From Herpetosiphonaceae bacterium (lineage in GTDB: Bacteria; Chloroflexota; Chloroflexia; Chloroflexales; Kallotenuaceae), in the NCBI GenBank assembly GCA_036401895.1, contig DASWTW010000024.1, positions 1,730 to 65,729 on the forward strand: a DNA stretch of 64,000 nucleotides, written 5' to 3'. Of the stretch, positions 1 through 54,000 are shown piece after piece. Under the pieces are notes generated by a model, which searched no databases, was not told the DNA's origin, and saw only the letters and a program-made list of their open reading frames with translations. The translations under genes were made by a program, and so were the position numbers. Position 1 is the stretch's first letter. Every line of letters begins with the position of its first letter.

Positions 1-2
1 AG

Positions 3-638
3 GTGGAGGGCATCGAGATTGCAAGCGTGGTCACCAACGATGATGTCGCGGTCAAGGATAGCCTCTACACAGCCGGGCGGCGCGGCGTCGGCGTGACGGT
101 GCTGCTGGAAAAGATCTGTGGCGGCGCGGCGGAGGCCGGCCTGTCGCTGGCAGAGGTCACGCGGATCGCGCAGAAAGTCAACGGTCAGGGCCGCTCGATG
201 GGCATGGCTCTGACCTCGTGCGCGGTTCCGGCGGCGGGCAAGCCGACCTTTGAGATCGGCGACGACGAGATGGAGATCGGCATCGGCATTCATGGCGAGC
301 CCGGACGCAAGCGCATGAATCTTCAGTCGGCGCGCGAGATCACCGAGATGCTGGCCAGCGCTGTACTCGACGATCTGCCGTTCAATCGCGGCGATCAGGT
401 GCTGGCGTTTGTCAACGGCATGGGCGGCACGCCACTGATCGAGCTGTACGTCGTTTACAATGAGCTGGTCAGCCTGTGCAAAGATCGCGGCGTGACCATC
501 AGCCGCAACCTGATCGGCAACTACATCACCTCGCTGGAGATGGCCGGCTGCTCGATCACGCTGCTCAAACTCGACGACGAGCTGACGCGCTTCTGGGACG
601 CGCCGGTGCATACGGCCGGGCTGCGGTGGGGGAGATAG
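3..638 (+). CDS. dhaK: Dihydroxyacetone kinase DhaK subunit, C-terminal part (5' end lies outside window)
   Basis: Translation contains DhaK/Dak1-type motifs ([18 protein letters not shown]); immediately followed by dhaL; no start codon in window. Confidence 0.85.
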
Positions 639-759
639 AAGAACCTAGAACCTAGAACTAAGAACCTAAAGATCAGAATTAAGAATTCCATTCACTGGTT
701 CCCTAGGTCTCTTGTTCTTTTGTTTGTCCTTGGTTCTAGGTTCTGGGTTCTAGGTTCTC
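637..759. repeat. Palindromic array of 7-bp GAACCTA-type heptamers: GAACCTA GAACCTA GAACTAA GAACCTA ... centre GAATTC ... GGTTCTA GGTTCTG GGTTCTA
   Basis: Direct reading shows 7-bp periodicity and inverted symmetry; lies intergenic between dhaK and dhaL; same unit recurs in at least 10 other intergenic gaps in this window. Confidence 0.75.
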
Positions 760-775
760 GTACTTTGGAGGCTTC

Positions 776-1426
776 ATGCGCATCACTGCCGAACACGTTA
801 TTCGCTTCATCGAGACGATCGCCGCGCGCGTGAAGGAGCAGCGAGCCTATCTGACCGAGCTGGACTCGGCGATCGGCGATGCCGACCACGGGATCAACCT
901 CGACCGCGGCTTTAGCGCGGTGCTCGCCAAGCTGCCGACCGTGGCCGACAAAGACATCGGCACGATCCTCAAGACCACGGGCATGACGCTGGTCTCGACC
1001 GTGGGCGGCGCGTCGGGGCCGCTCTACGGCACGGCGTTTCTGCGCGCGAGCATGGCGCTGGCCGATCGCTACGAGTTCAACGAGGACGATCTGACCGCCG
1101 CGCTGGAGGCGGCGCTGGAAGGCATCATGATGCGCGGCAAGGCCCAGCGCGGCGAGAAGACCATGATCGACACGATTGCGCCGGCGATCGATGCGCTGAA
1201 AACGGCTCGCTCACGCGATGTCGACGCGCACGCCGCGCTGCGGGAATCGCTGGCTGCCGCCGAGGAAGGCATGAAGTCCACGATCCCGATGCTGGCGACC
1301 AAGGGCCGGGCCTCGTATCTCGGCGAGCGCTCGATCGGCCACCAAGATCCCGGCGCGACCTCGGCCTATCTCATAGCGACCGTCCTGGTGGAGACAGTGG
1401 AGTCGATCCAACCGGAAGAAGGATGA
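776..1426 (+). CDS. dhaL: Dihydroxyacetone kinase ADP-binding subunit DhaL
   Basis: N-terminus carries the ...[15 protein letters not shown]... DhaL signature; AGGAGG-like RBS (ttggaggcttcATG). Confidence 0.85.
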
Positions 1427-1475
1427 TCGGGCGCTCCATGCCACGATCATCTTTTCACATGCAAGGAGGCAGTTC

Positions 1476-2999
1476 ATGACGAAATACGTTGCCGCAATCG
1501 ACCAGGGTACGACCAGCACTCGCTGTATGATTTTTGATCACGCCGGCCGAGTGATCGCCTCCGATCAGCGCGAGCATGAGCAGATCTTTCCGAAGCCCGG
1601 CTGGGTGGAGCATAACACCGAGGAGATCTGGCAGCGCACGCAGGGCGTCGTGCAGGGCGCGCTGCAAAAGGCCAATCTGACCCACTCCGATCTTGTCGCC
1701 GTGGGCATCACCAACCAGCGCGAGACCACGGCGGTCTGGAACAAAAAGACCGGCAAGCCCGTGTACAACGCGATCGTCTGGCAGGACACGCGCACGGATC
1801 AGATCGTGAACCGGCTGGCGCGCGACGGCGGACAGGATCGCTTCCGCGAAAAAGTTGGCCTGCCGCTGGCAACCTACTTCTCTGGCCCCAAGATTCGCTG
1901 GATTCTCGATAATGTCGACGGCGCGCGCGCGCAGGCCGAGGCGGGCGAGCTGGCCTTCGGCAACATGGACACGTTTCTGGCCTGGTGGCTCACCGGCGGC
2001 CCCAACGGCGGCGTGCATATCACCGATGTCAGCAATGCCAGCCGCACAATGCTGATGAACATGGAGACGCTGGACTGGGACGAGGAGATCATGGGCATTA
2101 TGGGTGTGCCGCGCTCGATGCTGCCCGAGATCAAATCGTCGAGCGAGGTGTACGGCGAGTGCGGAGGCGTCCTGCAAGGCGTGCCGCTGTCCGGCATCCT
2201 CGGCGATCAGCAGGCGGCCACTGTGGGACAGGCCTGCTACGACACCGGCGAGGCCAAGAACACCTACGGCACCGGCAACTTTATGCTGATCAACACCGGC
2301 ACCAGCCTGGTCCACTCCAAGTCGGGGCTGCTGACCACGCCGTGCTACAAGTTCGGCGACAAAGAAACCGTCTGGGCGCTGGAAGGCTCGATCGCGGTGA
2401 CTGGCTCGCTGGTGCAGTGGCTGCGCGATAACCTGGGCCTGATCAGCACCGCCTCGGAGGTCGAAGATCTGGCGCGCAAAGTCGAGGATAACGGCGGCAT
2501 GTATATTGTGCCGGCCTTCTCGGGATTGTTCGCGCCCTACTGGCGCAGCGACGCGCGCGGCGTGATGGTCGGCATGACGCGCTACATCAACAAGAATCAT
2601 ATCGCCCGCGCGGTGCTTGAAGCCACGGCCTACCAGACCCGCGAGGTGCTCGACGCGATGGAAAAAGACTCGGGCGTCACGCTCAAGGCGCTCAAAGTCG
2701 ACGGCGGCATGGTCTACAACGACACACTGATGCAGTTCCAGTCCGACATTCTGGGCGTGCCGGTCGTGCGGCCCAAAGTTGCGGAGACCACAGCGCTGGG
2801 CGCGGCCTACGCCGCCGGCCTAGCCACCGGCTACTGGAAGAACACCGACGAGATGCGCGCCAACTGGGGCATGGATAAGACCTGGGAGCCGCGCATGAGC
2901 GATGATCAGCGCGAGTCGCTCTACGCCGGCTGGAAGAAGGCCGTCACGCGCACCTTCGACTGGGTGGAAGAGGAGCGGGAGGCCGAGGCCAGCGCATAG
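1476..2999 (+). CDS. glpK: Glycerol kinase
   Basis: 507 aa; N-terminus [16 protein letters not shown]... and full-length FGGY kinase architecture; RBS aaggagg 8 nt upstream. Confidence 0.95.
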
Positions 3000-3005
3000 G
3001 CCGGA

Positions 3006-3053
3006 GGCGGGCGAGCACATGCGAACCTGAATCAGCGTGTGTGCTCGCCCGCC
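3006..3053. other. Perfect 14-bp inverted repeat (GGCGGGCGAGCACA / TGTGCTCGCCCGCC) with 20-nt loop, immediately 3' of glpK; no U-tract
   Basis: Read directly; located between the glpK stop (2999) and dhaM start (3087); candidate terminator, attenuator, RNA processing site or protein-binding site. Confidence 0.5.
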
Positions 3054-3086
3054 AGCCGGGAGCAAACGTTCACTGCCGACATTAGG

Positions 3087-3497
3087 ATGGAGGGAGGAGC
3101 TGCCGTGATCGGTTTGCTGATCGTCTCGCATAGCGCCAAAATCGCCGATGGAACCCTGGAGCTGGCCGAGCAGATGACGCGCGGACAAGTTCCGATCGCG
3201 GCGGCCGGCGGCACAGAGGATGGCTCGCTCGGCACCAGCGCCGACCTGATTCGCACGGCGGCGGAGCGGCTGGTGGCAAACGGCGCAGAGGGGCTGCTGG
3301 TGCTGGTCGATCTCGGCAGCGCCGTGATGAGCGCCGAGATCGCGCTGGAAGATTTTCCCCGGCCCTATCGCCTGAGCAATGGCCCGCTGGTCGAAGGCGC
3401 GCTGATGGCGGCGGTTGAAGCCTCGATCGGTGCGAATCTGGAGCAGGTCGCGGCGGTCGCGGTGCAGACCAAAGATCTGCTCAAAGTCCATGATTGA
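3087..3497 (+). CDS. dhaM: PTS-dependent DHA kinase phosphotransferase subunit DhaM, EIIA(Man)-like domain only
   Basis: VIGLLIVSHSAKIADG motif typical of the DhaM/EIIA-Man His-containing domain; GTG at 3105 is an alternative start; RBS GGAGGGAGGAG. Confidence 0.7.
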   Translation: MEGGAAVIGLLIVSHSAKIADGTLELAEQMTRGQVPIAAAGGTEDGSLGTSADLIRTAAERLVANGAEGLLVLVDLGSAVMSAEIALEDFPRPYRLSNGPLVEGALMAAVEASIGANLEQVAAVAVQTKDLLKVHD

Positions 3498-3533
3498 TAC
3501 GCTGCCTTCCCCTACGCAGAAAGGCGCTGGCCT

Positions 3534-3824
3534 ATGATCGAGCAGCACGAATTAATCCTGACGATCGACCACCCCTCAGGGCTGCATCTCAGGCCAGCGG
3601 CCCTGTTTGTCAAAACCGCCGCCAGCTTTCAAAGCGACATCCGCATCACCAATCTGGACCGCGAAGGACAGGCCGAGAGCGACGCCAAGAGCATGTTCGG
3701 CGTCATGCAGCAGGCTGTCTCGCAGGGCCATCGCGTGCGTGTGCGCGCCGAAGGCCCCGACGCCGACGACGCCCTGGCCGGCCTGCAACAGCTCGTCGAT
3801 AGCCGGTTCGAGGCCGAGGCATGA
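3534..3824 (+). CDS. ptsH: HPr-like phosphocarrier protein
   Basis: 96 aa with HPr active-site context HPSGLHLRPAA (His-15); stop overlaps the ptsI start (ATGA). Confidence 0.8.
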   Translation: MIEQHELILTIDHPSGLHLRPAALFVKTAASFQSDIRITNLDREGQAESDAKSMFGVMQQAVSQGHRVRVRAEGPDADDALAGLQQLVDSRFEAEA

Positions 3825-5494
3825 GCCGGCTGCGTGGTCTCGTCGGCTCGCCCGGCATTGCGATCGGCACAATCACGCATCTGGCGCATACAACAGCCCA
3901 CGCAGATACCAAAAGCTCCGATCCACAAACCGATCGTCAGCGGCTGCTCACGTCGCAGGCCGAGGTTGCCGCTCAGCTTCAGCGGCTGGCTGCCGAGCTG
4001 CGCGCCGAGGACAAGCCCGACGAGGCCGGGATCTTCGAGGCGCAGGCGCTGCTGGCCGGCGACTCCGCGCTGGTCTCCGAGGTCGAGCGGCTGCTCGCGG
4101 AGGAGCAGCTAGCGCTGCCTGAGGCTGTGCGCCGCGCTAGCGAGGCCATGGCGGCAACTTTGAGCCGAATCGACGATCCGTACCTGCGTGAGCGCGCCGC
4201 CGATGTGGAGGCGATCGGACAGCAGATTATCGCGACGCTGCAAGGCGTGACCCTCGATCTGCGCTTGCCCGAAGGCGCGATCGTGATCGCCCGCGACCTG
4301 ACGCCGGCCCAAACCGCTAGTCTGCGCGGTCTGGGCATCGCGGGCTTTGCCACGGCGGGCGGCACAGCTACGGGCCACGTCGCGATTCTGGCGCGGGCGC
4401 TCGATATTCCCGCAATCGTGGGGCTCAGCGATGCGCTGCTGGAGCTACCTGACGGAGCGACCGCGATTCTGGATGCCGCCGAGGGCCTGCTGATCGTGGA
4501 GCCGGATGAGGAGGAGCTAGCCACCTACTCCGCGCTGTACACGTCGCGGCAGGAAGATGCGGAGCGCCGCCACGGGCTGCTGAGCCTGCCCGCCGAAACC
4601 AGCGACGGTCAGCGCGTCGAGCTGTGGGCTAACATCGGCCATCCCGACGAAGTGCAGCGCGCGCTTGAGGTCGGCGCCGAGGGCATCGGCCTGTTTCGGA
4701 CCGAGTTTTTATTCCTTGAGCGCTCCGCGCCGCCTGACGAGGACGAGCAGTACGCCGCGTACACAGCCGCGCTGCGGGCGATGGCCGGCCAGCCGGTGGT
4801 GATCCGCACGCTCGACATCGGCGGCGACAAGCCGATTCCGTATCTGGAAGCGATGCAGGAGGCCAATCCTTTTCTCGGCTGGCGCGGCCTTCGCTTTGCG
4901 ATGCGCTTCCGTCAGCTGTTCCAGGTCCAGCTGCGGGCGCTGCTGCGCGCTGCCACCGAGGGCGATCTGCGCATCATGCTGCCGATGGTCGCCACGCCCG
5001 ACGATGTGGCCTGGGCACGCGCCGAGATCGAAGCGGCGACGGCAAGCTTGGCCCAGGAAGCGACTCCGCACCGAGCGGATGTGCCGCTGGGCATCATGAT
5101 CGAAACGCCGGCCGCCGCGATCACACTGGATCTGCTGGCTGCCGGTCTGCGCTTCTGCTCGATCGGCAGCAACGATCTGACACAATACACGCTGGCGGCG
5201 GATCGCGGTGTGGCCGAGCTGGGCCAGCGCTATCGTCACGACGATCCGGCAGTCTTTCGCATGATGCAACTGGCGGTGAGCGAGGCGCGCAGGCTGGGGC
5301 TGGAGATCAGCATCTGCGGCGAGCTGGCATCCGAGCCGGCGGCGGCGCTGGCGCTGGTGGGAATGGGCATCGAAAAGCTCAGCATGACTCCCGCTGCGCT
5401 GCCGGTCGTCAAAGAAGCCATCCGCTCGGCGTCGAGCGAGGAGGCGCGGCAGCAATCACAGCTGTACTTGCAGCGTACGCAGGCAGAAGTTTAG
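3821..5494 (+). CDS. ptsI: Phosphoenolpyruvate-protein phosphotransferase (Enzyme I)
   Basis: 557 aa; N-terminus ...GSPGIAIG..., PEP-utilizing domain, GIGLFRTEFLF signature. Confidence 0.9.
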   Translation: MSRLRGLVGSPGIAIGTITHLAHTTAHADTKSSDPQTDRQRLLTSQAEVAAQLQRLAAELRAEDKPDEAGIFEAQALLAGDSALVSEVERLLAEEQLALPEAVRRASEAMAATLSRIDDPYLRERAADVEAIGQQIIATLQGVTLDLRLPEGAIVIARDLTPAQTASLRGLGIAGFATAGGTATGHVAILARALDIPAIVGLSDALLELPDGATAILDAAEGLLIVEPDEEELATYSALYTSRQEDAERRHGLLSLPAETSDGQRVELWANIGHPDEVQRALEVGAEGIGLFRTEFLFLERSAPPDEDEQYAAYTAALRAMAGQPVVIRTLDIGGDKPIPYLEAMQEANPFLGWRGLRFAMRFRQLFQVQLRALLRAATEGDLRIMLPMVATPDDVAWARAEIEAATASLAQEATPHRADVPLGIMIETPAAAITLDLLAAGLRFCSIGSNDLTQYTLAADRGVAELGQRYRHDDPAVFRMMQLAVSEARRLGLEISICGELASEPAAALALVGMGIEKLSMTPAALPVVKEAIRSASSEEARQQSQLYLQRTQAEV

Positions 5495-5709
5495 GGCGTC
5501 TGCTTGTAGTACATCACCGGCTGGCCGCGCACCTGCGACTGAAGCGAGAGCACCGGCTTGCGCTCGACATGCAGCCTGCACGAATAATCGAACGGCACGC
5601 GGCTAGGATGGTTGCGCGGGTGAGCGCAGCTGCCAAGATATGAGCTAAGCTGGCCCTGCCAGTGGACGCAGGTCTCGCAGAGCGCCTTGCTCCGAGAATA
5701 CATATTCAT
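5491..5709 (-). CDS. Hypothetical small Cys-rich protein (72 aa; C-x2-C ... C ... C)
   Basis: Internal Met (MNMYSR...) of track ORF 5491..5868 is preceded by AAGGA; local GC dip at the start; convergent with ptsI and overlaps its 3' end by 4 bp; no recognisable family. Confidence 0.25.
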   Translation of the reverse strand: MNMYSRSKALCETCVHWQGQLSSYLGSCAHPRNHPSRVPFDYSCRLHVERKPVLSLQSQVRGQPVMYYKQTP

Positions 5710-5915
5710 AGCTATTAGTTCCTTCAGCCTCTCAAGTACTCCCCTGATTCGCGGCGCTAAAGCAAATACTATGCCGAGCAGCGGTGGCTCCGGCCCCCGC
5801 GCCTGACATGTGCAGTCTGTATCGCCTCGGCTGGCTGGAGAGCGAATCAAGTGCCAGCGTGGATGCAACGGATCGATCGGGCTGCGCGTATGTAGGTGAA
5901 TGAAACGGACAAGGA

Positions 5916-7032
5916 GTTAACTGAGGCGTGGTCATAATTGATCACGCGGCTTTCAGACAGGCTTTTAAGCCCACGCGGAGGTCGAGCCCGTGCTCCCAGC
6001 GATACCACAGTAGGAGTTGATACACCACGATCGCCCCGAGCACAAAGCGGCGGGTATTGGTCAACCCTTTGGTGGGGACCTGACCATGGCCATCGAACAT
6101 CCCTTTGAACTGTTCGTTGAAGTTCTCGATCGTGCTGGAACGCAGTTTATGGAAGATGCGTCGGACCTCCACCCCGCCATCGCGATGCGGGTAGCGGCCA
6201 TAGCGCGACGTGATGAGCAGGCGCTCATCTTCGGCGCACACCGCATGGAGGTCGGGCGTGTTGTAATGCCGATCGCCCAACACCACGCGCACGTCTGCGG
6301 GCAGAGCACAGATCAGGGCTGGGGCACGTTCGCTATCAGCCGTGTTAGCGGTTGTCAGTTCCGCCGCCAGTGGAATCCAGACGGCGGCAACCGTCGCGGC
6401 GAGATGCAATTTCCAGCCATAGACCCAGCCATGCCAGCCCGACTTGGTCCAATGGGCTTCGGTATCAATCGATGTGTGGGGTACGGTGTTGGCGGCGCGG
6501 TCCTTCTGATGCCAGACACCGCCACGCGCACGTAACAGCGTGCTCTCCACGGCGACGGCACGACCAGAGCGCGCCCACGGCTGGATCACGCTGACGAGCA
6601 CTCGGCCCAAGCAGGCAATCTGCGCGGGCAAGGTGACAGGCAGGGCGTGCAAGCGGCGTTCCCAGGTCCGACGACTGGGAAACTGTCCGTTGACGGTAAG
6701 CAGTTGGCGCAGGCAGATCATCTCGCTGGTCGGCTGGGCTAACACACTCAACAACTCATGCACGGTATGCAGGTGACGCACAAGCATGATCACCACGGCT
6801 TTCAAGAACAACCGATCGGTATACACGTTGGGTCGACCGGGACCGCGTTTGGGAAGCGGGAGCATCGGCACCCGGTCCACGAATCGGACCAACGTGACAA
6901 GTAGCGTCTCTTGGCCTATCATAACGGCACCTCCGTTTCATGCTGGTGTGGTAACCGTTATGATGCGGTGGGAGCCGCGTTGTGGTCAAGTCCGCACGCG
7001 GCTTTTTGAATTATGACCAACCCTCAGTTAAC
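5916..7032 (-). mobile_element. IS5-family insertion sequence (about 1.1 kb) with about 24-bp imperfect terminal inverted repeats; TTAA present at both junctions
   Basis: Left end GTTAACTGAGGCGTGGTCATAATT (5916-5939); right end reverse-complement GTTAACTGAGGGTTGGTCATAATT (7009-7032); a single 326-aa DDE transposase gene lies inside. Confidence 0.8.
5942..6922 (-). CDS. DDE transposase, IS4/IS5 superfamily
   Basis: 326 aa; DDE_Tnp_1-like sequence with C-terminal ...TIENFNEQFKGMF... motif; RBS GGAGGTG 7 nt upstream of the ATG. Confidence 0.85.
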   Translation of the reverse strand: MIGQETLLVTLVRFVDRVPMLPLPKRGPGRPNVYTDRLFLKAVVIMLVRHLHTVHELLSVLAQPTSEMICLRQLLTVNGQFPSRRTWERRLHALPVTLPAQIACLGRVLVSVIQPWARSGRAVAVESTLLRARGGVWHQKDRAANTVPHTSIDTEAHWTKSGWHGWVYGWKLHLAATVAAVWIPLAAELTTANTADSERAPALICALPADVRVVLGDRHYNTPDLHAVCAEDERLLITSRYGRYPHRDGGVEVRRIFHKLRSSTIENFNEQFKGMFDGHGQVPTKGLTNTRRFVLGAIVVYQLLLWYRWEHGLDLRVGLKACLKAA

Positions 7033-7033
7033 T

Positions 7034-7210
7034 ATGCAGGAACCACAGCGAGATAATCCTCAACTGCAGCACGGTACGGGCATTGGGCTTGGTCTGACAC
7101 TCGGCGCCGCAATTGGCCTCGCCCTCGGCAATATAGCCATCGGCATAGCGGTCGGTATCGCCATTGGAGCGGCCATGGAGGCCAGGCGCGCAAACCAGGA
7201 CAAAAGCTGA
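7034..7210 (+). CDS. Small glycine-zipper membrane peptide (58 aa), hypothetical
   Basis: GLGLTLGAAIGLALGNIAIGIAVGIAIGAA contains repeated GxxxG/AxxxG; ATG lies 2 nt after the IS right end; no SD seen, so low confidence. Confidence 0.35.
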   Translation: MQEPQRDNPQLQHGTGIGLGLTLGAAIGLALGNIAIGIAVGIAIGAAMEARRANQDKS

Positions 7211-7235
7211 TACCGTATGCGCACCAGCCGGCTCC

Positions 7236-7300
7236 GAGATCGCGTGGTGATGGTTGGGGACGAGTCGCCGCATGGTGAGCGTCCCCAACCCGACCAGCCG
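7236..7300. other. Extended imperfect palindrome GTGGTGATGGTTGGGGACG-(17 nt)-CGTCCCCAACC...CACCAC
   Basis: Read directly; inner 11-bp perfect stem; lies in the 310-bp untranslated gap upstream of the DAHP synthase gene. Confidence 0.4.
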
Positions 7301-7461
7301 CACCACAGGCTCAGATCCACCCTTCTCACATGCACCGCCTTGAGCTTCCGGCTTTAAGCTACACCCTCGAACCGATGCCTGCCACCAACACCCGAGGCGG
7401 AACATCCGTCCGCTAACCTTGATCCTGATTGTGACGCATGATACAATTAGCCCAACAGATA

Positions 7462-7501
7462 GATCGTGCGACCCCAAGCAGCCTGCGGCCGCTGGGGTTT
7501 T
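7462..7501 (+). terminator. Rho-independent terminator-like hairpin (CCCCAAGCAGCC...GCCGCTGGGG) followed by T7
   Basis: GC stem plus TTTTTTT run ending about 20 nt before the DAHP synthase ATG; could terminate upstream transcript or act as an attenuator. Confidence 0.5.
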
Positions 7502-7522
7502 TTTGTAAGTTTTGAGGCTACC

Positions 7523-8569
7523 ATGCTGATCGTCATGGACTCACATGCTAGCGACGCGCATATCAAGCGAGTTTGTGAAGAAATCGAAGCCATGGGCTAC
7601 GTTCCGCACCCCATGCCCGGCCCAACACGGACCGCCATCGGAGTCACGGGGAATGAAGGGGCGATCGTGCAAACATCTCGAATCCAGATGTTGCCCGGAG
7701 TCGCTGAGGTTATCCGGGTAACGAAGCCATACAAGCTGGTCTCGCGCGAGTTCAAGGAGCTTGACACCATCGTTCGGGTCGGCGACATCACGATCGGCGG
7801 CGCGGGCGTGGTCGTGATCGCCGGGCCATGCACCATCGAAAGCCGCGAGCAGCTGTTCCATACCGCCGAAGCCGTGATCGCGCATGGCGCCACGATCATT
7901 CGCGGCGGCGCATACAAGCCGCGCACGTCGCCCTACAGCTTCCAGGGCCTGGGCGAAGAAGGCCTACGCTATCTGGCCGAGGTCCGCGAAACGCTGGGCA
8001 CGCCGGTGATCACCGAGGTCATGGACACCGAGACCGTGCCGCTGGTCGAGCACTACGCCGATATTTTGCAGATCGGCGCGCGCAACATGCAGAACTACCC
8101 GCTGCTGCGCAAAGTCGGCCGCTCGCATCGTCCGGTGATGCTCAAGCGCGGCCTGGCGGCGACGGTTAAAGATCTGCTGCTGGCGGCCGAGTACATCATG
8201 GCCGAGGGCAACAAGCAGGTCATTCTGTGCGAGCGCGGCGTGCGCACCTTCGACGATCACTCGCGATTCACGCTGGACCTGGGCGCGATCCCGGTGCTCA
8301 AGTCGCTGACGCATCTGCCGGTGATCGTCGATCCCAGCCATGCCTCGGGCTACGCCGATCGGATCATCCCGATGTCGCGGGCGGCGATCGCGGCGGGCGC
8401 CGACGGCCTGATCGTCGAAGTTCATCCCGACCCGGCGTTCGCGGTGTGTGACGGCGAGCAGTCGCTGATCCCGGAGCGCTTCGGCGAGATGATGCAGCAG
8501 GTCGAGCGAATCGCGGCGGCTGTAGATCGATCGGTGATCGGTCGCGAGCCGATGCGGGCTGAGGTATAA
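7523..8569 (+). CDS. 3-deoxy-7-phosphoheptulonate (DAHP) synthase, type I-beta with N-terminal ACT/ferredoxin-like regulatory domain
   Basis: Core IAGPCTIES...[11 protein letters not shown] motifs; about 80-aa N-terminal regulatory domain as in Thermotoga-type enzymes; the upstream part of the track ORF translates the terminator and is rejected. Confidence 0.9.
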
Positions 8570-8575
8570 TGTTGA

Positions 8576-10150
<1,575 letters not shown>

Positions 10151-10415
10151 ACGAAGAACCAAGAACTTAGAACCTAGAACTGGGGAAACGAACAAGAGAA
10201 CAAACGAACAAGAAAACAAAGGATAAAGAGACTTCGCCAGACTCCCCCTCGCCTGTGCCGTAGGCAACCGAGGGGGAAGCCTGCCGAGGTTCGGGGAAGG
10301 GGGAAGGCACGGCAGTGCCAGGGGATGAGGGCCTGTCAAGGACCAACGAAACCTAGAACCTAGAACCAAGAGAAAACGACGTTAGGTTCTGGGTTCTAGG
10401 TTCTTCAAGGAAACT
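10151..10415. repeat. Composite intergenic repeat: GAACNNN heptamer array, then a GC-rich hairpin module (CCCCCTCGCC...GGGGATGAGGGCC), then an inverted heptamer array (GAACCTA x2 ... GGTTCT x3)
   Basis: Read directly; same architecture as the elements at 11570, 21340, 41662, 49836, 54001 and 61070. Confidence 0.7.
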
Positions 10416-11558
10416 ATGCCAATCTCATATGCAGAACCTGTGTCGCTGACGTGTCCGCGCTGCCAGACGCCGTTCATCAACGACACCTTTATCATCGTGG
10501 ATGGCGTCGAGCGGCCGGACCTGGTCGCGCGCATTCTGGACGATACGCTCCACGACGCTCGCTGTCCCAGCTGCCAGCAGGTTGGCCGCGTGCCGGCGCC
10601 GCTGCTCTACCACGACGGACGCAACGCCCGCGTGTTGCTTGGCGTGCCGCCCGACATGTCGGAGGCCGAGTGGCGCGGGGTAGGGCAGACGCTGCTGTGG
10701 ACGCTGATCGGCGCGCTGCCGGAGCAGGCCCGGCTGCCCTACCTGGGCGATGTCCAGGCCGAGGCCGGAGTCGCCGGCGTGGCGCAGATTATCCGCAGCG
10801 AGAAGCTGGCCGGATCGGATGAGGACGAGACCGAAGCGCTGCCGCCGATCGTGATCGCGATCCAGGCGCTGCTCGAAGCCCGAGGCGCGGCCGAGCTTCA
10901 GCAGACGCTCGCTCAGCACCCGATCTTGAACGAGCCGCAGTCGGTGACGATTATGCAGGAGCTGGCGGCGGAGGCGATCAAGCACGGACAGATCGAGGCC
11001 GCGAATGGCTTTGCTCGTGCCGCGGAGCTGCTGGATCAGGTCAAGCAGATGCGCTCGCAGGCGCCCACGGTCGCCGTCGATCTGGGAGCCGATGCGCAGC
11101 GCCTGACGCCTGAAGAGCTGGAGTCGCTGGCGTTTGCTCTGCTGCGCAGCACGACAGGACAGGAGCTGGCGCGCACAGTCGACGAGCATCCTGAGCTGCT
11201 GGAAGACTGGATCGACAGCGCGCTGGCCGCCTACGCCGCGCAGGCCCGTCGCGAGGACAAGCCGCGCATCGCCGATGGCCTGGACGAGCGCCGCGTCGCC
11301 CTGGGGGAGATGCGCGAGCAGTACCGCGCCCAGCAGCCGGTGCTCGAAGCGCTTCAGAGCTATTTGCAGGCCGAGAGCGGCGACGAGATCGAGGCCATCG
11401 TGCTGGAAAACGAGCTGCTGACGACCGACGCCGCCGATCAAGCCCTGGCGCGACTTGCCGAGAGTGCGCGCGCCGACAACGATCAGGACTTCGCCGCGTT
11501 TGTCGAGGAGCGCCGCCGCTTCTTGCAGCAGGTTCGCGCCGCCCTGGAAGAAGAATAA
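10416..11558 (+). CDS. CpXC-type zinc-ribbon (CPRC...CPSC) protein with helical C-terminal region, hypothetical
   Basis: Two CxxC pairs in the first 55 aa; remainder is acidic and helical; the long antisense ORF 10425..11441 is rejected. Confidence 0.5.
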   Translation: MPISYAEPVSLTCPRCQTPFINDTFIIVDGVERPDLVARILDDTLHDARCPSCQQVGRVPAPLLYHDGRNARVLLGVPPDMSEAEWRGVGQTLLWTLIGALPEQARLPYLGDVQAEAGVAGVAQIIRSEKLAGSDEDETEALPPIVIAIQALLEARGAAELQQTLAQHPILNEPQSVTIMQELAAEAIKHGQIEAANGFARAAELLDQVKQMRSQAPTVAVDLGADAQRLTPEELESLAFALLRSTTGQELARTVDEHPELLEDWIDSALAAYAAQARREDKPRIADGLDERRVALGEMREQYRAQQPVLEALQSYLQAESGDEIEAIVLENELLTTDAADQALARLAESARADNDQDFAAFVEERRRFLQQVRAALEEE

Positions 11559-11569
11559 GCAGTACCTCG

Positions 11570-11750
11570 CTAAGCCCCTTCTCCTGCCGCAACCGAGGCG
11601 GAAGCTCGCCGAGGTTCGGGGAAAGGGGTTGGGGATGAGAGCCTGAGGACCAACGAACGAACAAAAGAACTAGCGAACAAGGGAACAAAGGGTTGCGATT
11701 CCTACGGTTTTGTTCCTTTGTTTCCTTGTTCCTTTGTTCCATAAACCGTC
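11570..11750. repeat. Composite intergenic repeat (GC-rich module CCCTTCTCCTGCCGCAACCGAGGCGGAAG...GGGGATGAGAGCC plus inverted GAACAAAG/CTTTGTTC heptamer arrays)
   Basis: Read directly. Confidence 0.65.
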
Positions 11751-11828
11751 CTTCACACCACGATCGCGCGATTTGCTATAATGAGCGCGATTTGATCGCG
11801 CCATAATTATCTGTAAAGGGAGGCGGCG

Positions 11829-13076
11829 ATGGCGAATAGACCCCGTGTGGTAGTCACCGGATTAGGCGCTGTGACGCCGCTGGGCTTGGATGTTGCCAGC
11901 TTGTGGAGCGGCATCAAAGAAGCGCGCAGCGGCATCGGGCCGATCACGCGCTTCGATGCCAGCGACTTCGATACCAAAATTGCCGCCGAGGTTAGCGGCT
12001 TCGATCCGCTCACGGTCCTCGATCGGAAAGAGGCGCGGCGCACCGACCGCGTGATTCAGCTGGCGATCGCGGCGACCGACGAGGCGCTGCGCCATGCGGA
12101 GCTTAAGATCACCGAGGCCAACGGCGATCGCGTCGGCGTGCTGATCGGCAGCGGCATTGGCGGCATCGAGACGATCAGCGACAACATGGACGCGCTGCGC
12201 TCACGCGGTCCCGGCCGGGTCAGCCCGTTTACCGTCCCGATGATGATCGCGGACATGCCAGGCGGCATGGTCTCAATCCGCTACGGCGCGAAAGGTCCCA
12301 ACTACGCGCCGGTCTCAGCCTGCGCCACGTCGGGCAACGCGATCGGCGAGGCGGCGGCGATCATCCGGCGCGGCGATGCCGATGTCATGATCGCGGGTGG
12401 GACCGAGGCCGGGATTGTGCCGATTGCGATCGCGGCCTTCAATGCGGCCAAAGCGCTCTCGACACACAACGATCATCCTGAGTCGGCCTCGCGGCCCTTC
12501 GACAAAACGCGCGACGGCTTTGTGATGGGCGAAGGTGCGGGGATTCTGATCCTTGAGCGGCTGGAGCACGCGCTGGAGCGGGGAGCGCCGATCCTGGCCG
12601 AGATCCTGAGCTACTCCACTACCGCCGACGCCTACCATATCACGATGCCCGACGAGCTCGGCTCGGGAGCGGCCAAGGCCATGCAGAACGCGCTGAACTT
12701 TGCCGGGCTCCAGCCAGGCGACATCGACTATTTGAACGCACACGGCACCTCGACGCAGGCCAACGACCGGCTCGAAACCCTGGCGATCAAAACCGTCTTT
12801 GGCGAGACCGCCAGGCACGTGCCGGTCAGCTCATCCAAATCGCAGTTTGGGCATCTGCTCGGCGCGGCCGGCGCGGTCGAAGGTGTGATCTCGATCCTGG
12901 CGATCCGCGAGGGCTTGCTGCCCGCGACGATCAACTACACCACGCCCGATCCCGAGTGCGATCTTGACTATGTGCCGAATACGCCGCGTCGTGCGACAGT
13001 CAAGCGAGTGATGTCCAACTCGTTCGGCTTTGGCGGCCACAACGTTAGCCTGATCTTTGGCAGCTACGAGTCATGA
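11829..13076 (+). CDS. fabF: 3-oxoacyl-[acyl-carrier-protein] synthase II
   Basis: 415 aa; N-terminus RVVVTGLGAVTPLG, active-site Cys context SACATSGNAIG, His-His motifs. Confidence 0.95.
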   Translation: MANRPRVVVTGLGAVTPLGLDVASLWSGIKEARSGIGPITRFDASDFDTKIAAEVSGFDPLTVLDRKEARRTDRVIQLAIAATDEALRHAELKITEANGDRVGVLIGSGIGGIETISDNMDALRSRGPGRVSPFTVPMMIADMPGGMVSIRYGAKGPNYAPVSACATSGNAIGEAAAIIRRGDADVMIAGGTEAGIVPIAIAAFNAAKALSTHNDHPESASRPFDKTRDGFVMGEGAGILILERLEHALERGAPILAEILSYSTTADAYHITMPDELGSGAAKAMQNALNFAGLQPGDIDYLNAHGTSTQANDRLETLAIKTVFGETARHVPVSSSKSQFGHLLGAAGAVEGVISILAIREGLLPATINYTTPDPECDLDYVPNTPRRATVKRVMSNSFGFGGHNVSLIFGSYES

Positions 13077-13135
13077 TCCTACCAGCGTTCTGATGCGCAC
13101 GGGCAAACAGCTATCGGAACGTCCAACAAAAGTGT

Positions 13136-13879
13136 ATGCCTGCGGTTGAAAAACTTATGTCCGCGCTCCGCGTGCAGTTCAAAGATCCCGATCTGCTCCT
13201 GAGTGCGCTCACTCATCGCTCCTACGTCCATGAGCACTACCAGACCTCGCTCCAGCCCAACGAGCGGCTAGAGTTTCTGGGCGACTCGGTGCTCAATTTT
13301 TTGACGGCGCAGTTTTTGTATCAGACCTTTCCGCAGCGCGGCGAGGGTGAGCTGACTGCGATGCGCGCCTCGCTGGTGCGCACCGGTATGCTGGCTCGCT
13401 TTGCGCGGCAGCTTGAGCTGGGCAGCTTTCTCAAGCTCGGCAAAGGCGAGGAGCACAGCGGCGGTCGCGAGCGCGACAATCTGCTGGCCGATGCCTTCGA
13501 GGCCGTGATCGCCGCGATCTATCTCGATCAGGGCATGGAGGCGGCGCATCGTTTTCTGCTGCCGTATCTCGAATCCGAGGCCGCGCGCATCGTCGTTCAT
13601 GGGCTCCAGCTCGACGATAAAAGCCGCTTGCAGGAGCGCGTCCAATCCGAGCGCAACCAGACGCCGCGCTATCGCACCGTGAGCGCGGAAGGGCCGGATC
13701 ACAATCGGGTCTTTACGATCGAGGTGCAGGCGGGCGGCGACCGGCTGGGCGTTGGCGTCGGCAACAGCAAGCAGGCGGCAGCGCAGGCGGCGGCGCGAGC
13801 AGCGCTAGAGTACCTGGACTCGCTTGAGTCGCAGAGCAGCAAAGCCGACGGCAAAGCTGAAGGACCTGCGAGCGAATGA
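13136..13879 (+). CDS. rnc: Ribonuclease III
   Basis: ALTHRSY...ERLEFLGDSVL RNase III signature plus C-terminal dsRBD; start could also be the ATG at 13157. Confidence 0.9.
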   Translation: MPAVEKLMSALRVQFKDPDLLLSALTHRSYVHEHYQTSLQPNERLEFLGDSVLNFLTAQFLYQTFPQRGEGELTAMRASLVRTGMLARFARQLELGSFLKLGKGEEHSGGRERDNLLADAFEAVIAAIYLDQGMEAAHRFLLPYLESEAARIVVHGLQLDDKSRLQERVQSERNQTPRYRTVSAEGPDHNRVFTIEVQAGGDRLGVGVGNSKQAAAQAAARAALEYLDSLESQSSKADGKAEGPASE

Positions 13880-14724
13880 GCGGCACGCTGTTGATCACCG
13901 GCGCGAGCGGCTATCTGGGCCGTGAGCTGGCGCGTCAGGCGGTCCAGGCAGGCTGGCAGACGGTCGGCACCTTTCGGCGCGCATCGCTGGCAATCCCCGG
14001 CGTTCGCTGGCAGCCGCTCGACGTCCGCGATCGAGCGGAGGTCGACGCGTGTGTCGCCGAGATCCGGCCCGACGCGATCGTTCATGCCGCAATCGCTGAG
14101 CCAACCGAGTGGACGACCAACGCCGACGGCGCGGCGCATGTGGCGCTGGCAGCTCGCGATCACGGCACTCGGCTGGTACACGTTTCCAGCGATGCGATCT
14201 TTAGCGGCGCGCCTCAGCCCTACGACGAGAGCGCCGCGCCCGATCCGATCACACCTTACGGCGCGTCCAAAGCCGCCGCCGAGACCGCCGTCAGCGCGAT
14301 CCTGCCCACGGCGGCGATCGTGCGCACGTCGCTGATCATCGGCGCGGAGCCGTACAAACATGTGCGTATGGTGCTGGATATGCTGACCGGCCAGCGCTCC
14401 GACGCGCTCTTCAGCGACGAGATTCGCTGTCCCGTGGCGGTGGCAGATCTGGCAGCGGCGCTGCTGGAGCTGGCACATAACGACTACGCGGGCGTGCTCA
14501 ACGTCTCGGGCGCCGATGCGCTGAGTCGCTATGAGCTTGGCGTGCTTATTGCTCGGCGCTGGCAGTATGATCCGGCGCGGCTGAGCGCCATCACCACCGT
14601 CGAAAGCGGGCTGCGACGGCCGACCAACGTGCGTCTGGATATTCGACGCGCGCAACGATTGCTTCAAACCCAGCTGCGGGGAGCGACGAGCTTTATCGCC
14701 AGCCTGGAGATCGAAAAGAGTTAA
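13876..14724 (+). CDS. NAD(P)-dependent sugar-nucleotide reductase, RmlD (dTDP-4-dehydrorhamnose reductase)-like SDR
   Basis: N-terminal LLITGASGYLG Rossmann motif, YGASKAAAE catalytic motif; start overlaps the rnc stop (ATGA). Confidence 0.6.
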   Translation: MSGTLLITGASGYLGRELARQAVQAGWQTVGTFRRASLAIPGVRWQPLDVRDRAEVDACVAEIRPDAIVHAAIAEPTEWTTNADGAAHVALAARDHGTRLVHVSSDAIFSGAPQPYDESAAPDPITPYGASKAAAETAVSAILPTAAIVRTSLIIGAEPYKHVRMVLDMLTGQRSDALFSDEIRCPVAVADLAAALLELAHNDYAGVLNVSGADALSRYELGVLIARRWQYDPARLSAITTVESGLRRPTNVRLDIRRAQRLLQTQLRGATSFIASLEIEKS

Positions 14725-14740
14725 CATTTAGGAAGCGAAC

Positions 14741-15712
14741 ATGAGTCGTTTTGACGAGCTGCGGATTTTTAGCAGTACCGGCCATCCAGGGCTGGCTGAG
14801 GCGATCTGCTCGTATATCGGCGTGCAGACCGCAGGCATTCACGTTGAAAAGTTTCCCAACGATAACATTTTTGTAAAGCTTTCCGAGAGCGTGCGCGAGC
14901 AGGATGTGTTCATCGTGCAGTCGCTGCACACGCCGCTCAGCGATCGGATCATGGAGCTGCTGCTGACGATCGACGCCTGCAAGCGCGATTCGGCCGGCCG
15001 GATCACGGCGGTGCTGCCCTACTACGCCTACAGCCGCACCGACAAGCGCGATCAGCCGCGTGTGCCGATCAGCGCCCGTCTGCTGGCCGACATGATCGAG
15101 GTGGCCGGCGCGAACCGTGTGCTGACGCTTGATCTGCACGCCGGCCAGATCCAGGGCTTTTTCCGCATTCCGTTCGACGAGATGAGCGCGATGCATCTGC
15201 TGCTTCAGCGTGTTCGTGAGCTGGATCTGGAGAACGCTACGGTGGTCGCCCCGAGCCTGGGCTTTGCCAAGCGCGCCCGCAATTTCGCCGAGCTGCTGGG
15301 CATGCCGCTGGCGCTGGTCGAGCGCCGCCACGATCTCAAAGAAACCGAGGTCAGGCATCTGAATCTGCTGGGCGATGTCACCGGCCGCGCCTGTATTATC
15401 GTCGACGACGAGGTAGCTACCGGCAAGACGATGCTGCGGGTGGCCGAGCTGCTCAAGGAAAAAGGCGCGGAGCGGCTGATCGGCGCGACGATCCACCCGC
15501 TGCTGTGCGACGGCGCGATCGAGCGCTTCAAGCAGGGCTCGATCGAGATGCTGATCACCACCGACTCGATCCCGCATCCCGAGGAGACCTGGAGCGGCCT
15601 CAAGGTGTCGTCGGTCGCGCCACTGTTGGGCGAGACGATCCTGCGTATCCACAAGGGCATCTCGGTGGGCGCGATGTTCGCGGATGGTCACGCGCAGCTT
15701 GGCCGCTGGTAA
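14741..15712 (+). CDS. prs: Ribose-phosphate pyrophosphokinase
   Basis: 323 aa with a PRPP synthetase architecture and PRPP-binding loop (IIVDDEVATGKT). Confidence 0.95.
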   Translation: MSRFDELRIFSSTGHPGLAEAICSYIGVQTAGIHVEKFPNDNIFVKLSESVREQDVFIVQSLHTPLSDRIMELLLTIDACKRDSAGRITAVLPYYAYSRTDKRDQPRVPISARLLADMIEVAGANRVLTLDLHAGQIQGFFRIPFDEMSAMHLLLQRVRELDLENATVVAPSLGFAKRARNFAELLGMPLALVERRHDLKETEVRHLNLLGDVTGRACIIVDDEVATGKTMLRVAELLKEKGAERLIGATIHPLLCDGAIERFKQGSIEMLITTDSIPHPEETWSGLKVSSVAPLLGETILRIHKGISVGAMFADGHAQLGRW

Positions 15713-15802
15713 GATCGACATTTGGGCAATCTGGCTGGGTGGCGCGTCGATCGACGCGCCATCGACGTTTATGTAGGTAGCGATCAGGTTGAAGGATTTA
15801 GA

Positions 15803-16264
15803 ATGAAGTGGCCGCGTTTCCGCTCCGGCAAATCGGCTGACAGGCCAAGCAGGCTGCCGCCGCCCGCGCTGCTCGACCGGCTGTATCCACGCGTGCTGGG
15901 CTTTGCTTATCAGGTGCTGGGCGATGCCGAGCTGGCAGCGCAGGCAGCCGAGACGATCTTTGTGCGGCGCGATCCGGCCCAAAATGAGCTTGCGGTCTGG
16001 ACGGCCGCCGTGGCCACGATGCGCAGCTACATTGCGCGCGGCTTTGTGGTCCGGCCGCTGGTGCCGCAGACCCAGAGCTGGCAGACCGATCTGCTGAGGC
16101 GGCTGGCGCAGCTAGAGCCGATGGAGCGCGCGCTGCTGCTTTTGCGGTATCATGAGGATCTTGAGCCGGCAGATCTGGCGCAGGTGCTGGGGATTTCCGA
16201 GGATGAGCTGCGCAAGCAGGTGGCGCTGGCACGCGGAAAGCTGCTGGATCTCGCGAATATGTGA
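15803..16264 (+). CDS. ECF-type RNA polymerase sigma factor (sigma-70 region 2 and 4), region 2 degenerate
   Basis: Region-4 HTH RALLLLRYHEDLEPADLAQVLGISEDELRKQ; RBS GAAGGA; followed by an overlapping anti-sigma gene. Confidence 0.6.
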   Translation: MKWPRFRSGKSADRPSRLPPPALLDRLYPRVLGFAYQVLGDAELAAQAAETIFVRRDPAQNELAVWTAAVATMRSYIARGFVVRPLVPQTQSWQTDLLRRLAQLEPMERALLLLRYHEDLEPADLAQVLGISEDELRKQVALARGKLLDLANM

Positions 16265-16599
16265 TGGTTAGTTGTACCGATATTGAGCCGCTGCTCTCCG
16301 ACTACGCCGACGGCATTGCAGATGAGCGCGCCCGGCGGATCGTCGAGCGCCATGTGCAGCTGTGCTCCCGCTGCCGTCAGCGCGTGCAGGCGGCGCATCA
16401 GGTCGCGCAGCAACTGCGGCGCTTGCCGCTGCTGCCGGCCGGTGTGTCGAGCCGGGCGGCGCGCTTTAAGCGGCGGATGGAGGCCCGAGCCATGCGCGAT
16501 CCACGGCGGCTTGAGCACTACCCGTTCTTTGTTTCGGCGCTGCTGGCCTCGCTGCTGATCCTGATCATGCTGCTGGCACTGTTCTACCTCGGCATTTGA
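16261..16599 (+). CDS. Zinc-finger (HxxxCxxC, ZAS-type) anti-sigma factor with C-terminal TM helix
   Basis: HVQLCSRCRQ motif; hydrophobic C-terminus; start overlaps the sigma gene stop (ATGTGATGG). Confidence 0.55.
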   Translation: MMVSCTDIEPLLSDYADGIADERARRIVERHVQLCSRCRQRVQAAHQVAQQLRRLPLLPAGVSSRAARFKRRMEARAMRDPRRLEHYPFFVSALLASLLILIMLLALFYLGI

Positions 16600-16602
16600 G
16601 TG

Positions 16603-16848
16603 CTAGCGATCGCGGTTGCGCCGCTCCTCAGCCAGCTCTTGCTCGTCGCCCCGCAGCAGCCGCACGATCTCGTCGTCGCGCCGCCGGTTCGCCTGCCGCT
16701 CGTTGAGCGAGGCCATCCGCCGCTCCAGGTCTTCCTCCTCCTGCGACATGTTGAGCTGCGACTCCCAGTAGCGCCGGATCGCGAGAAACACCACCACCAG
16801 CAGCGCCGCCACGACCACAAACACGATATTCAGCATCTCTTGGCTCAT
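16603..16848 (-). CDS. Small single-pass membrane protein (81 aa) with strongly charged E/R-rich C-terminal tail, hypothetical
   Basis: N-terminal TM helix IVFVVVAALLVVVFLAI then RRYWES...EEEDLERR...RRRDDE; lies 80 bp downstream of the CHAT-STAND gene on the same strand; the longer start at 16926 is also possible. Confidence 0.4.
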   Translation of the reverse strand: MSQEMLNIVFVVVAALLVVVFLAIRRYWESQLNMSQEEEDLERRMASLNERQANRRRDDEIVRLLRGDEQELAEERRNRDR

Positions 16849-16929
16849 GGTACCAATCCTTAATCGCCATCCCCGGCGATCTCGATCATCTGTTGGAAAT
16901 GTACCATAAACCAGCATAGATGCCACGCG

Positions 16930-21339: not shown

Positions 21340-21530
21340 AAGTATCTTTCGTGCAAGGAGCGCGAAGCACCAAGAACCAAGAACAAAGGAACAAAGAAAC
21401 AAGCGAACAAACGGAGAACTGAGAACACAGAACCAAAAGCAGAACTGCAAAGTACCAGATTCCCCTCTCCTGCGGCGGCGGGAGAGGGGGTGCCGAACAA
21501 CGTGAGGCGGGGGTGAGGGCCTGCCCAAAC
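21340..21530. repeat. Composite intergenic repeat (GAACNNN heptamer array plus GC-rich module CCCCTCTCCTGCGGCGGCGGGAGAGGGGG...GGGGGTGAGGGCC)
   Basis: Read directly; lies between tRNA-Val and the YcaQ-like gene. Confidence 0.65.
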
Positions 21531-40700: not shown

Positions 40701-40725
40701 GTTCTTCCGATGAAGGGATACTACC

Positions 40726-41658: not shown

Positions 41659-41661
41659 GAT

Positions 41662-42917: not shown

Positions 42918-42959
42918 GGCCTATACTCCTATCACGTCATTGTGAGCATATGTTCTTGG

Positions 42960-49834: not shown

Positions 49835-49835
49835 G

Positions 49836-53991: not shown

Positions 53992-54000
53992 GGGAACTCC

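Follow-up and report, generated by a model that had tools for sequence, protein, structure and literature searches.

Arrays of GAAC-cored heptamers and octamers as putative repeat-built palindromes at gene boundaries of a Herpetosiphonaceae genome

What are the short tandem repeats that occupy gap after gap between the genes of an uncultured Herpetosiphonaceae bacterium (Chloroflexota)? The window, meaning the whole stretch of DNA that was analysed, comprises 64 kb of a metagenome-assembled genome (MAG). About 20 arrays of 7- and 8-nt units are spread over 10–11 of its intergenic gaps, and none lies within conserved coding sequence. Our tentative answer, to which we give a probability of about 0.45, is that these arrays are repeat-built extragenic palindromes akin to short tandemly repeated repetitive (STRR) sequences and to repetitive extragenic palindromic (REP) sequences and bacterial interspersed mosaic elements (BIME), forming putative stem-loops at cistron boundaries, the function of which we infer. 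The family would then be one lineage's 'GAAC dialect' of widespread extragenic palindromes made of tandem 7–8-nt modules.

GAAC arrays and their REP-like partner in the window

The pattern GAACNNNGAACNNNGAAC (GAACN3GAACN3GAAC) matches the window 13 times against 0.00 in 100 dinucleotide-preserving shuffles, and its 8-nt version (GAACN4GAACN4GAAC) seven times, again against 0.00 in such shuffles. These counts settle the claim of the initial annotation that the arrays are not due to chance. From one core to the next in non-coding DNA the distance is nearly always 7 nt (23 cases) or 8 nt (13 cases), GAAC/GTTC has a density of 6–8.5 per kb in non-coding and 2.3 per kb in coding DNA, and the period-7/8 arrays with at least three copies (3–5+ copies) reported by Tandem Repeats Finder in the window are all GAAC-based. 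All eleven places listed in the initial annotation do carry GAAC arrays, and tandem, divergent and convergent gaps are occupied alike. Before placement was judged, the gene map was corrected with Pfam and two over-extended open reading frames (ORFs) were mended. The arrays are extragenic on the corrected map, as had been proposed, save two arms (41772–41780 and 54188–54217) that overlap the last 3–13 codons of a gene.

Heptamer units read A-GAAC-[C/A]-N, with the A preceding GAAC in 54 of 56 units, and octamer units read GAAC-A-A-R-N. The earlier description was of 7-bp units, but about one third of all units are 8-mers of the type GAACAARN. An element pairs a 5' purine-rich arm, (AGAACMN or GAACAARN)n, with a complementary T-rich arm 3' of it; each arm has 3–5 units, and the inner cores of paired arms lie 18 to ~180 nt apart. 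Unit types are locally homogeneous within arrays, and a single core, GAAC, is found at all arrays of the window's clade. Interior degenerate cores are rare (about 4–5%), mostly AAAC and of the same kind in both arms. The arm order is 5'-GAAC...GTTC-3' in all six inverted pairs with arms no more than 200 nt apart in the window and sister contigs, and reversed in none. Together the arms take up the space between the stop codon upstream and the Shine-Dalgarno (SD) sequence downstream: the first arm or REP-like element begins 0–11 nt past the stop codon, and at five of ten loci the T-rich arm ends 2–22 nt 5' of the start codon, with only the SD sequence between them.

The element between dhaK and dhaL has core arms of 27 nt each (640–666 and 732–758), 65 nt apart and 89% complementary, and the RNA of 636–780 is predicted to fold with −56.3 kcal/mol (z −5.4). 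Its GTTC arm ends 17 nt 5' of the dhaL ATG (776), with the SD sequence GGAGG at 765–769. This copy had been described as almost perfectly symmetric, but the axis lies near 699 and not at the GAATTC (683–688) that had been taken for the centre.

The arrays are physically linked to another dispersed family of repeats, GC-rich REP-like hairpins (GGCCCTCACCCC...CCCTCTCCCGTTGCGACAGGAGAGGGG). Among 18 oriented REP copies, taken from the window and its relatives, 16 run on into GGTACTT(C)TTT and then a GTTC array; the 5' junction of the family is CA/GGCCC. In elements that have two arms, the usual place of the REP is the loop, beside the T-rich arm. Its presence varies between otherwise similar arrays, as between window positions 42992–43026 and relative L199. 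The array and REP-like features of the window are as follows.

640–668, + strand: 5' (GAAC) arm of the dhaK/dhaL element, AGAACCT ×4, starting 2 nt past the dhaK stop codon (636–638)
697–758, + strand: 3' (GTTC) arm of the dhaK/dhaL element, degenerate at 697–731, then (TAGGTTC)×4 at 732–758
10151–10231, + strand: GAAC arm after the IMPDH stop codon (10150), heptamers at 10156–10183 and octamers at 10190–10231
10240–10333, − strand: REP-like GC-rich element, GGCCCTCA... on the − strand, between this GAAC arm and the next palindrome
10345–10406, + strand: small palindrome, (GAACCTA)×2–3...(TAGGTTC)×3, 9 nt 5' of the ATG (10416) of a gene for a CpXC-domain protein
11563–11643, − strand: REP-like element starting 4–6 nt past a stop codon at 11558, without a T-rich tail because the gene end abuts the element
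11655–11742, + strand: palindrome with an octamer GAAC arm (11655–11690) and a GTTC arm (11709–11742), upstream of a TGCTATAAT box (~11778) and of fabF (ATG 11829)
21365–21445, + strand: single GAAC arm, or on the − strand a GTTC arm (T-rich) lying downstream of a REP-like element; 50–60 nt upstream of tRNA-Val
21455–21521, − strand: REP-like element, linked to the arm at 21365–21445 via GGTACTTT
40597–40705, + strand: palindrome upstream of fmt, GAAC arm at 40597–40632 (GAACCGA ×3) and GTTC arm at 40668–40705, ending 20 nt before the ATG (40726)
41670–41722, + strand: REP-like element after the fmt stop codon (41658)
41729–41780, + strand: GTTC arm joined to this REP via GTACTT in a convergent gap, overlapping the last 3 codons of an acyl-CoA dehydrogenase gene (− strand)
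42992–43072, + strand: palindrome in a divergent gap, (GAACAAAG)×4 at 42992–43026 and (TTTGTTC)×3 at 43050–43072; fold z −3.0
49835–49941, + strand: composite of GAAC arm (49835–49854), REP-like element (49855–49903) and GTTC arm (49906–49941), starting at the base after a stop codon and ending 22 nt before an ATG (49964)
54005–54219, − strand: composite of GAAC arm (54219–54186), REP-like element (54176–54088) and GTTC arm (54085–53994); the GAAC arm overlaps the last codons of a psuG-like gene, which ends at 54180, and the GTTC arm abuts the SD sequence and ATG (53991) of an amidohydrolase gene
61073–61130 and 61157–61252, + strand: two tandem REP-like elements after the stop codon (61068) of a DUF1206 gene
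61256–61337, + strand: GTTC arm joined to the second REP via GGTACTTTC, with five strict heptamers at 61301–61335

No canonical sigma-70 promoters were found at the arrays. Perfect −10-like boxes (TGCTATAAT, TATAAT) adjoin arrays at ~11775–11785, ~42955–42965 (−) and 43103–43108 and are conserved in relative L004; they were read by eye, without −35 matches, and are putative. Such boxes without recognisable −35 hexamers may bear on the promoter architecture of the lineage. An Rfam search of the whole window at the gathering threshold returned only tRNA-Val. The arrays also mislead gene callers into over-extending ORFs: the amidohydrolase ORF at 52384–54108 (−) runs on through an array, its likely start being the ATG at 53991, and a 321-aa ORF at 54144–55109 (+) without a Pfam match shadows the real psuG-like gene on the − strand. 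Elsewhere in the window, 16930–20568 (−) encodes a 1212-aa CHAT protease/STAND NTPase (AAA_16, NACHT)/TPR protein; this gene lies in the stretch of lowest GC content (0.55 vs 0.62) and has the look of an acquired gene for defence or signalling. An IS4/IS5-type transposase gene (DDE_Tnp_1) at 5942–6922 (−) has no GAAC arrays at its ends, and at the matching place upstream of the DAHP synthase gene, sister contig L130 has other genes (GmrSD_N, HEPN_RiboL-PSP).

Turnover in relatives and the dha operon junctions

The proteins of the window are identical to those of a MAG labelled Herpetosiphonaceae bacterium. We then compared orthologous loci in sister MAGs and metagenomes, at nucleotide identities of 94–96% (L004), about 91% (L005 and L130) and about 85% (L127). 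Arrays occupy the same gaps, with differing unit types and copy numbers. Against L004, the columns of the elements are 50% identical and the flanking non-coding columns 88%. In three gap-free arms, the GTTC core shows 0 changes in 36 positions, compared with 14 in 60 for spacer and flank (Fisher p=8e-4). The site and the core persist, and all else turns over faster than the neighbouring non-coding DNA.

The gap between dhaK and dhaL can be followed over a wider range of relatives, listed here with DhaL identity.

Window, DhaL 100%: (GAACCTA)n...(TAGGTTC)n palindrome
L130, DhaL 99% to the window: (GAACAAAG)n...(CTTTGTTC)n
L005, DhaL in the same 90% cluster: (GAACAAAG)n...(CTTTGTTC)n
L127, DhaL 84%: nested version of the GAAC and GTTC arms that fills a gap of 360 nt
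L256, DhaL 80%: decayed GAACAAAG-type palindrome
L252/L253, DhaL 82%: (GAGTATC/GAGTGTT)n...(TAATACT)n
L251, DhaL 82%: small AGTGACG hairpin of heptamer-like units
L258 (Kouleothrix-like), DhaL 74%: (GGAGTCA...)/(ATTCTGA...)
L129 (Kallotenue), DhaL 80%: GC-rich hairpin
L254, DhaL 82%: no array (58-nt gap)
L128, DhaL 79%: no element (9-nt gap)

Both arms have changed together, reading CTA/TAG in the window and AAAG/CTTT in L130 and L005, and the L005 ortholog has a fold z of −5.0. The only empty site, in L128, is too divergent for insertion borders to be defined. Several hairpins of distant relatives include G.U pairs and are predicted to fold much more stably as the sense strand. In L252, for example, the 5' arm keeps a strict GAGT core and the 3' arm reads ACTY, which gives G.U pairs. 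Sense and antisense values (kcal/mol) for the non-GAAC or decayed hairpins are −39.6/−21.8 in L252, −61.6/−49.9 in L256 and −69.7/−53.6 in Kallotenue. The MIP/dhaK and dhaL/glpK junctions likewise carry heptamer-repeat hairpins in L251, L252 and L258 (z −2.4 to −9.7). Heptamer-built stem-loops at cistron junctions are a Chloroflexia-wide habit, and the single GAAC core is special to the window's clade.

The dha-junction hairpins lie at 1820–1938, 2941–3000 and 3640–3746 in L251, at 2892–3000 and 3625–3725 in L252, and at 6070–6187 and 6830–6927 in L258; the units in these related Chloroflexia include GAGTATC/GAGTGTT, AGTGACG, GGAGTCA and AGTGTTG. One related contig with such hairpins encodes a DhaL identical to that of the cultured Kouleothrix aurantiaca, which is therefore a possible experimental model. 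Three independent short-read assemblies (Logan contigs L001–L003) break in the dhaK/dhaL GTTC arm, at window positions 729–733. Because short-read assemblies break at arrays, these will be under-represented in MAGs.

Distribution in other phyla and likeness to known repeats

A scan for GAACN3 ×4 over one genome per GTDB species gave at least 120 matches (L007–L126), and the taxonomic frequencies and the counts that follow describe these listed matches as samples, not censuses. They come from Acidobacteriota (about 30), Planctomycetota, Verrucomicrobiota, Bacteroidota, Cyanobacteria and Geobacteraceae, and within Chloroflexota from Roseiflexus, Oscillochloris and a MAG of the window's clade. 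The initial annotation had called the family genome-specific. This is wrong, since GAAC heptamer inverted pairs occur in many phyla, and sister MAGs and metagenome contigs have the same family. What differs is the polarity. Among the matches listed, inverted pairs of other phyla have the GTTC arm first (23:0), and the sole GAAC-first pair (L065) is from the window's clade; pairs of the octamer GAACAAAG listed from metagenomes are also GAAC-first (5–6 vs 0). The listed pairs of other phyla sit tightly between genes of all orientations (++ 7, +− 5, −− 4, −+ 3); examples are L010 7795–7868, L021 2918–3074, L107 4103–4179 and L110 1527–1590. A metagenome scan with GAACAAAGGAACAAAGGAAC also gave at least 120 matches, largely generic simple repeats of low-GC, probably eukaryotic DNA, and only 6–8 among the matches listed belong to the window's clade. 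In a Roseiflexus MAG (L028 1294–1560), GAAC heptamer blocks form a higher-order repeat: three direct ~74-nt copies, each opening GAGACA-GAACTGA-GAACCAG-GAACCAA, are spaced much like CRISPR arrays, the copies being imprecise.

To our knowledge, heptamer arrays were noted in cyanobacteria from 1990 on and afterwards also in Geobacter and Beggiatoaceae, with no demonstrated function or partner. Literature searches with six exact array strings returned only unrelated primer matches, and a search on Herpetosiphon repeats found no paper. Cyanobacterial STRR sequences share with the GAAC arrays the tandem 7-bp units, the many intergenic copies, the inverted hairpins between cistrons of one operon, and sequences that differ between relatives while the structure is kept; for STRR hairpins of 7-bp units between hupS and hupL, a role in the stability of transcripts or in translational coupling has been suggested (PMC2670836). 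The host here, however, belongs to Chloroflexota, the units are AGAACMN or GAACAARN and not the STRR consensus, and the arrays have mixed 7/8-nt units, an invariant GAAC core, a fixed polarity and a fusion to a REP-like hairpin. The paired tandem hepta-, octa- and nonanucleotide sites of G. metallireducens (classes 1–3), described as 'putative global regulator binding sites' (Aklujkar et al. 2009, PMC2700814), also consist of 3–5 tandem 7–9-nt units on opposite strands, at variable distance and in intergenic DNA. G. metallireducens has dozens of copies, one of them within an operon (proB/proA, as dhaK/dhaL here), and they are similarly lineage-specific, being absent from G. sulfurreducens. Their units, in contrast, are GTTGCTYN, TCTCCGTS[Y] and MTYCTGA, several unrelated classes occur per genome where we find one core, and they are tied to ISGme8/9 insertions and not to a REP-like hairpin.

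With the REP, BIME and REPIN (paired REP) elements of proteobacteria, the arrays have in common an extragenic, imperfectly palindromic and hairpin-forming nature, mosaics of inverted modules, frequent starts a few nucleotides past stop codons, and sequence families specific to a lineage. The GC-rich companion looks like a genuine REP and has, as REP does, a unique imperfect palindrome conserved among copies. The earlier label REP-like is apt in a broad sense, for dispersed, extragenic, imperfectly palindromic, hairpin-forming repeats joined to such a hairpin. The arms are tandem 7–8-nt modules, not a unique 20–40-nt palindrome, and copies share only a 4–5-nt core, with spacers and loops that bear no relation from locus to locus. 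In 18 aligned copies, neither the base of the arrays nor that of the GC-rich hairpin shows a GTAG/CGTC tag; a GGTAC motif lies 3–10 nt 3' of the hairpin instead, and no RAYT gene was found in the 64-kb window. TAACTGA repeats of Beggiatoaceae, cyanobacteria and Bacteroidetes are heptamer arrays of 2–6 copies as well, intergenic, phylogenetically patchy and often immediately upstream of a start codon, and candidate single-strand binders have been discussed for them. They comprise 169 direct sets and one inverted set of a fully conserved 7-mer (MacGregor 2015, PMC4679880), whereas here inverted pairs are the rule and 3–4 of 7–8 positions vary. The GAAC family shares the features of this already known class and differs at the sequence level from each known system; what is new is the single core, the mixed 7/8-nt periods, the fixed polarity and the REP fusion.

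Weighing the explanations

If the arrays are repeat-built palindromes, their arms, once transcribed, would pair to give long stem-loops of up to 27 bp where one cistron meets the next. Such stem-loops may protect the 3' end of the upstream mRNA, and stems of 20 bp or more could present an RNase III-type processing site. They may also influence how the downstream ribosome-binding site is reached or coupled, while array copies outside transcripts would be tolerated by-products. The core may be recognised sequence-specifically by a trans-acting factor or homogenised among copies, and this activity may be what spreads or maintains the composite of REP and array. A gene for RNase III, the enzyme class in question for stems of 20 bp or more, lies at 13136–13879 (+); its position is incidental, with no linkage to the arrays implied.

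The strong dhaK/dhaL folds, the arms that change together and the unrelated, sense-biased hairpins at the same junction support transcribed stem-loops. The core is constant at ~20 arrays and the spacers are free, and therefore sequence-specific recognition or homogenisation is implied as well. Several observations weigh against this explanation. The sense strand folds better in only about half of the GAAC elements (by 7.3 kcal/mol in the window, whereas L130, L005 and L127 favour the antisense strand), and a sense bias is seen only in the non-GAAC hairpins of relatives. The region upstream of fmt (40590–40730) folds weakly (z −1.0), and some arms, such as those at L004 12347–12417, have non-complementary spacers. 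The palindrome at 42992–43072 lies between conserved divergent −10-like boxes at 42955 and 43103 and is probably untranscribed, as is probably an L004 palindrome located beyond the canonical terminator of a convergent gene. A consensus terminator scan found none in 40200–43300, and 12 in 1–20000 (12.7 in shuffles), none of them at arrays. Degeneration of the core is as rare in one arm as in the other and of one type in both, so that a constraint on duplex DNA, or a symmetric one, fits better than a constraint on RNA alone. Pfam scans of the ORFs in the 64-kb window found no Y1_Tnp/RAYT protein, the only transposase being the DDE_Tnp_1 protein, and no candidate binding protein for the arrays was found there. 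Given the weak folds, the non-complementary spacers, the missing sense advantage and the untranscribed-looking copies, structure alone is not enough.

Alternatively, the arrays might be operators read in duplex DNA, which we regard as possible but doubtful. A small lineage-specific protein, nucleoid-associated or a global regulator, e.g. of the ribbon-helix-helix type, would bind one GAAC core every 7–8 bp and polymerise along the arms; the inverted arms would set polarity or allow bridging, with effects on transcription, supercoiling or the insulation of neighbouring genes. The initial annotation's proposal of repeated binding sites for one DNA-binding protein is compatible with the data and partly favoured by the unchanged core beside diverging spacers and by the like variants of both arms. 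Such spacing is known from the sites of the omega repressor (7-bp heptads), MetJ (8-bp metboxes) and ParG (ACTC boxes every 8 bp), and ribbon-helix-helix operator arrays share with the elements a 4–5-bp core every 7 or 8 bp in two inverted arms. An invariant core with spacers that diverge between orthologs, one core at all of the ~20 window arrays, the same spectrum of core variants in both arms, arm pairs that are non-complementary in their spacers and copies outside likely transcripts all suit this explanation, and the Geobacter paired repeats have been read as binding sites of global regulators yet to be named (Aklujkar et al., PMC2700814). Duplex binding, however, needs neither near-perfect palindromy in the spacers, which many elements have, nor arms that change together; the elements occur in every kind of gap, even inside an operon without room for a promoter; the window offers no candidate protein; and the unrelated hairpins at the same junction in relatives, some with G.U pairs, point to structure over a shared operator. 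Rather unlikely, in our judgement, is selfish or neutral DNA that does nothing for the host and accumulates where tolerated, whether a miniature inverted-repeat transposable element (MITE)- or REPIN-like element mobilised with the REP-like hairpin or a by-product of slippage and palindrome-templated correction. Strictly extragenic placement in tandem, divergent and convergent gaps alike, very fast turnover, the fixed-orientation fusion to a REP-like family whose presence differs between similar arrays, the local homogeneity of units expected of slippage, and the breaks of short-read assemblies at arrays (L001–L003) would all fit. Neutral decay, though, should erode the core like the spacers, against the 0/36 and 14/60 changes observed; the dhaK/dhaL palindrome is kept down to 84% DhaL identity, with other hairpins beyond; the strict arm order needs a mechanism; and no transposase partner was found in the 64 kb. 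The MITE proposed in the initial annotation has its inverted arms, but we rejected it because loop and internal sequences are unrelated between copies. No target-site duplication was recognised, and orthologous sites show turnover of units and copy number instead of being plainly filled or empty.

The least probable explanation we weighed, and a rather remote one, concerns single-stranded RNA. The U-rich arm upstream of the SD sequence, (YUUUGUUC / CUAGGUUC)n, would be a multi-site platform for a putative OB-fold protein, for instance S1 of the ribosome or a cold-shock protein, whose binding would open the hairpin and adjust translation or antitermination of the gene downstream. MacGregor proposed such a role for TAACTGA repeats, and S1, Csp and CsrA are listed as candidates for heptamer repeats at start codons (MacGregor 2015, PMC4679880); B. 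subtilis CspB prefers the 7-nt site GTCTTTG/T (PMC1904285), close to GTTCTTTG. The nearness of the T-rich arm to the start codon at half of the loci agrees with this idea, as does its presence on the sense strand in four of four independent single-arm co-directional loci. The orientation evidence is nevertheless weak (p~0.06), because a palindrome puts the T-rich arm 3' on either strand; several arms lie 86–113 nt from the start codon with a −10-like box between, one lies in a convergent gap, and the TAGGTTC and TCCGTTC units are not especially Csp-like. Other candidates were rejected. A LexA/SOS box (GAAC-N4-GTTC) does not match cores that are direct repeats at 7–8 nt, with inner cores 18–180 nt apart. 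HutP-like UAG-N4 triplets, CsrA GGA motifs and SD/anti-SD mimicry would each account for a single unit type, either CTA heptamers or AAAG octamers, and not for the whole family; the idea that a 7-nt period places stop codons in every frame fails as a general rule, because GAACAAAG and CTTTGTTC units contain none; and no GC-rich stem with a U tract, as in an intrinsic (Rho-independent) terminator, matched at the arrays in the consensus scan. We therefore rank repeat-built palindromes first, followed by duplex operators, selfish or neutral DNA and the Csp/S1 platform.

In the broadest, speculative and improbable reading, tetranucleotide-cored 7–8-nt arrays would be the cis half of a phylum-spanning system in which a lineage-specific 'reader' or 'writer' protein recognises a 4-nt core with a 7–8-nt period and continually rewrites the arrays at gene boundaries. 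If true, this would explain the single GAAC core of this clade, the arrays with a GAGT core that a sister lineage has at the same operon junctions, the opposite strict polarities of Chloroflexota (GAAC-first) and other phyla (GTTC-first), and the long-noticed excess of heptameric repeats in bacteria. The locus adds comparative handles, lacking in earlier descriptions, in its invariant core versus free spacers, its fixed polarity that is reversed elsewhere and its REP-like link; the dha operon junctions, with hairpins across Chloroflexia and a different unit in each lineage, are a further one. Phylogenetic profiling for the trans-acting factor depends on contrasts such as those between GAAC, GAGT and no array.

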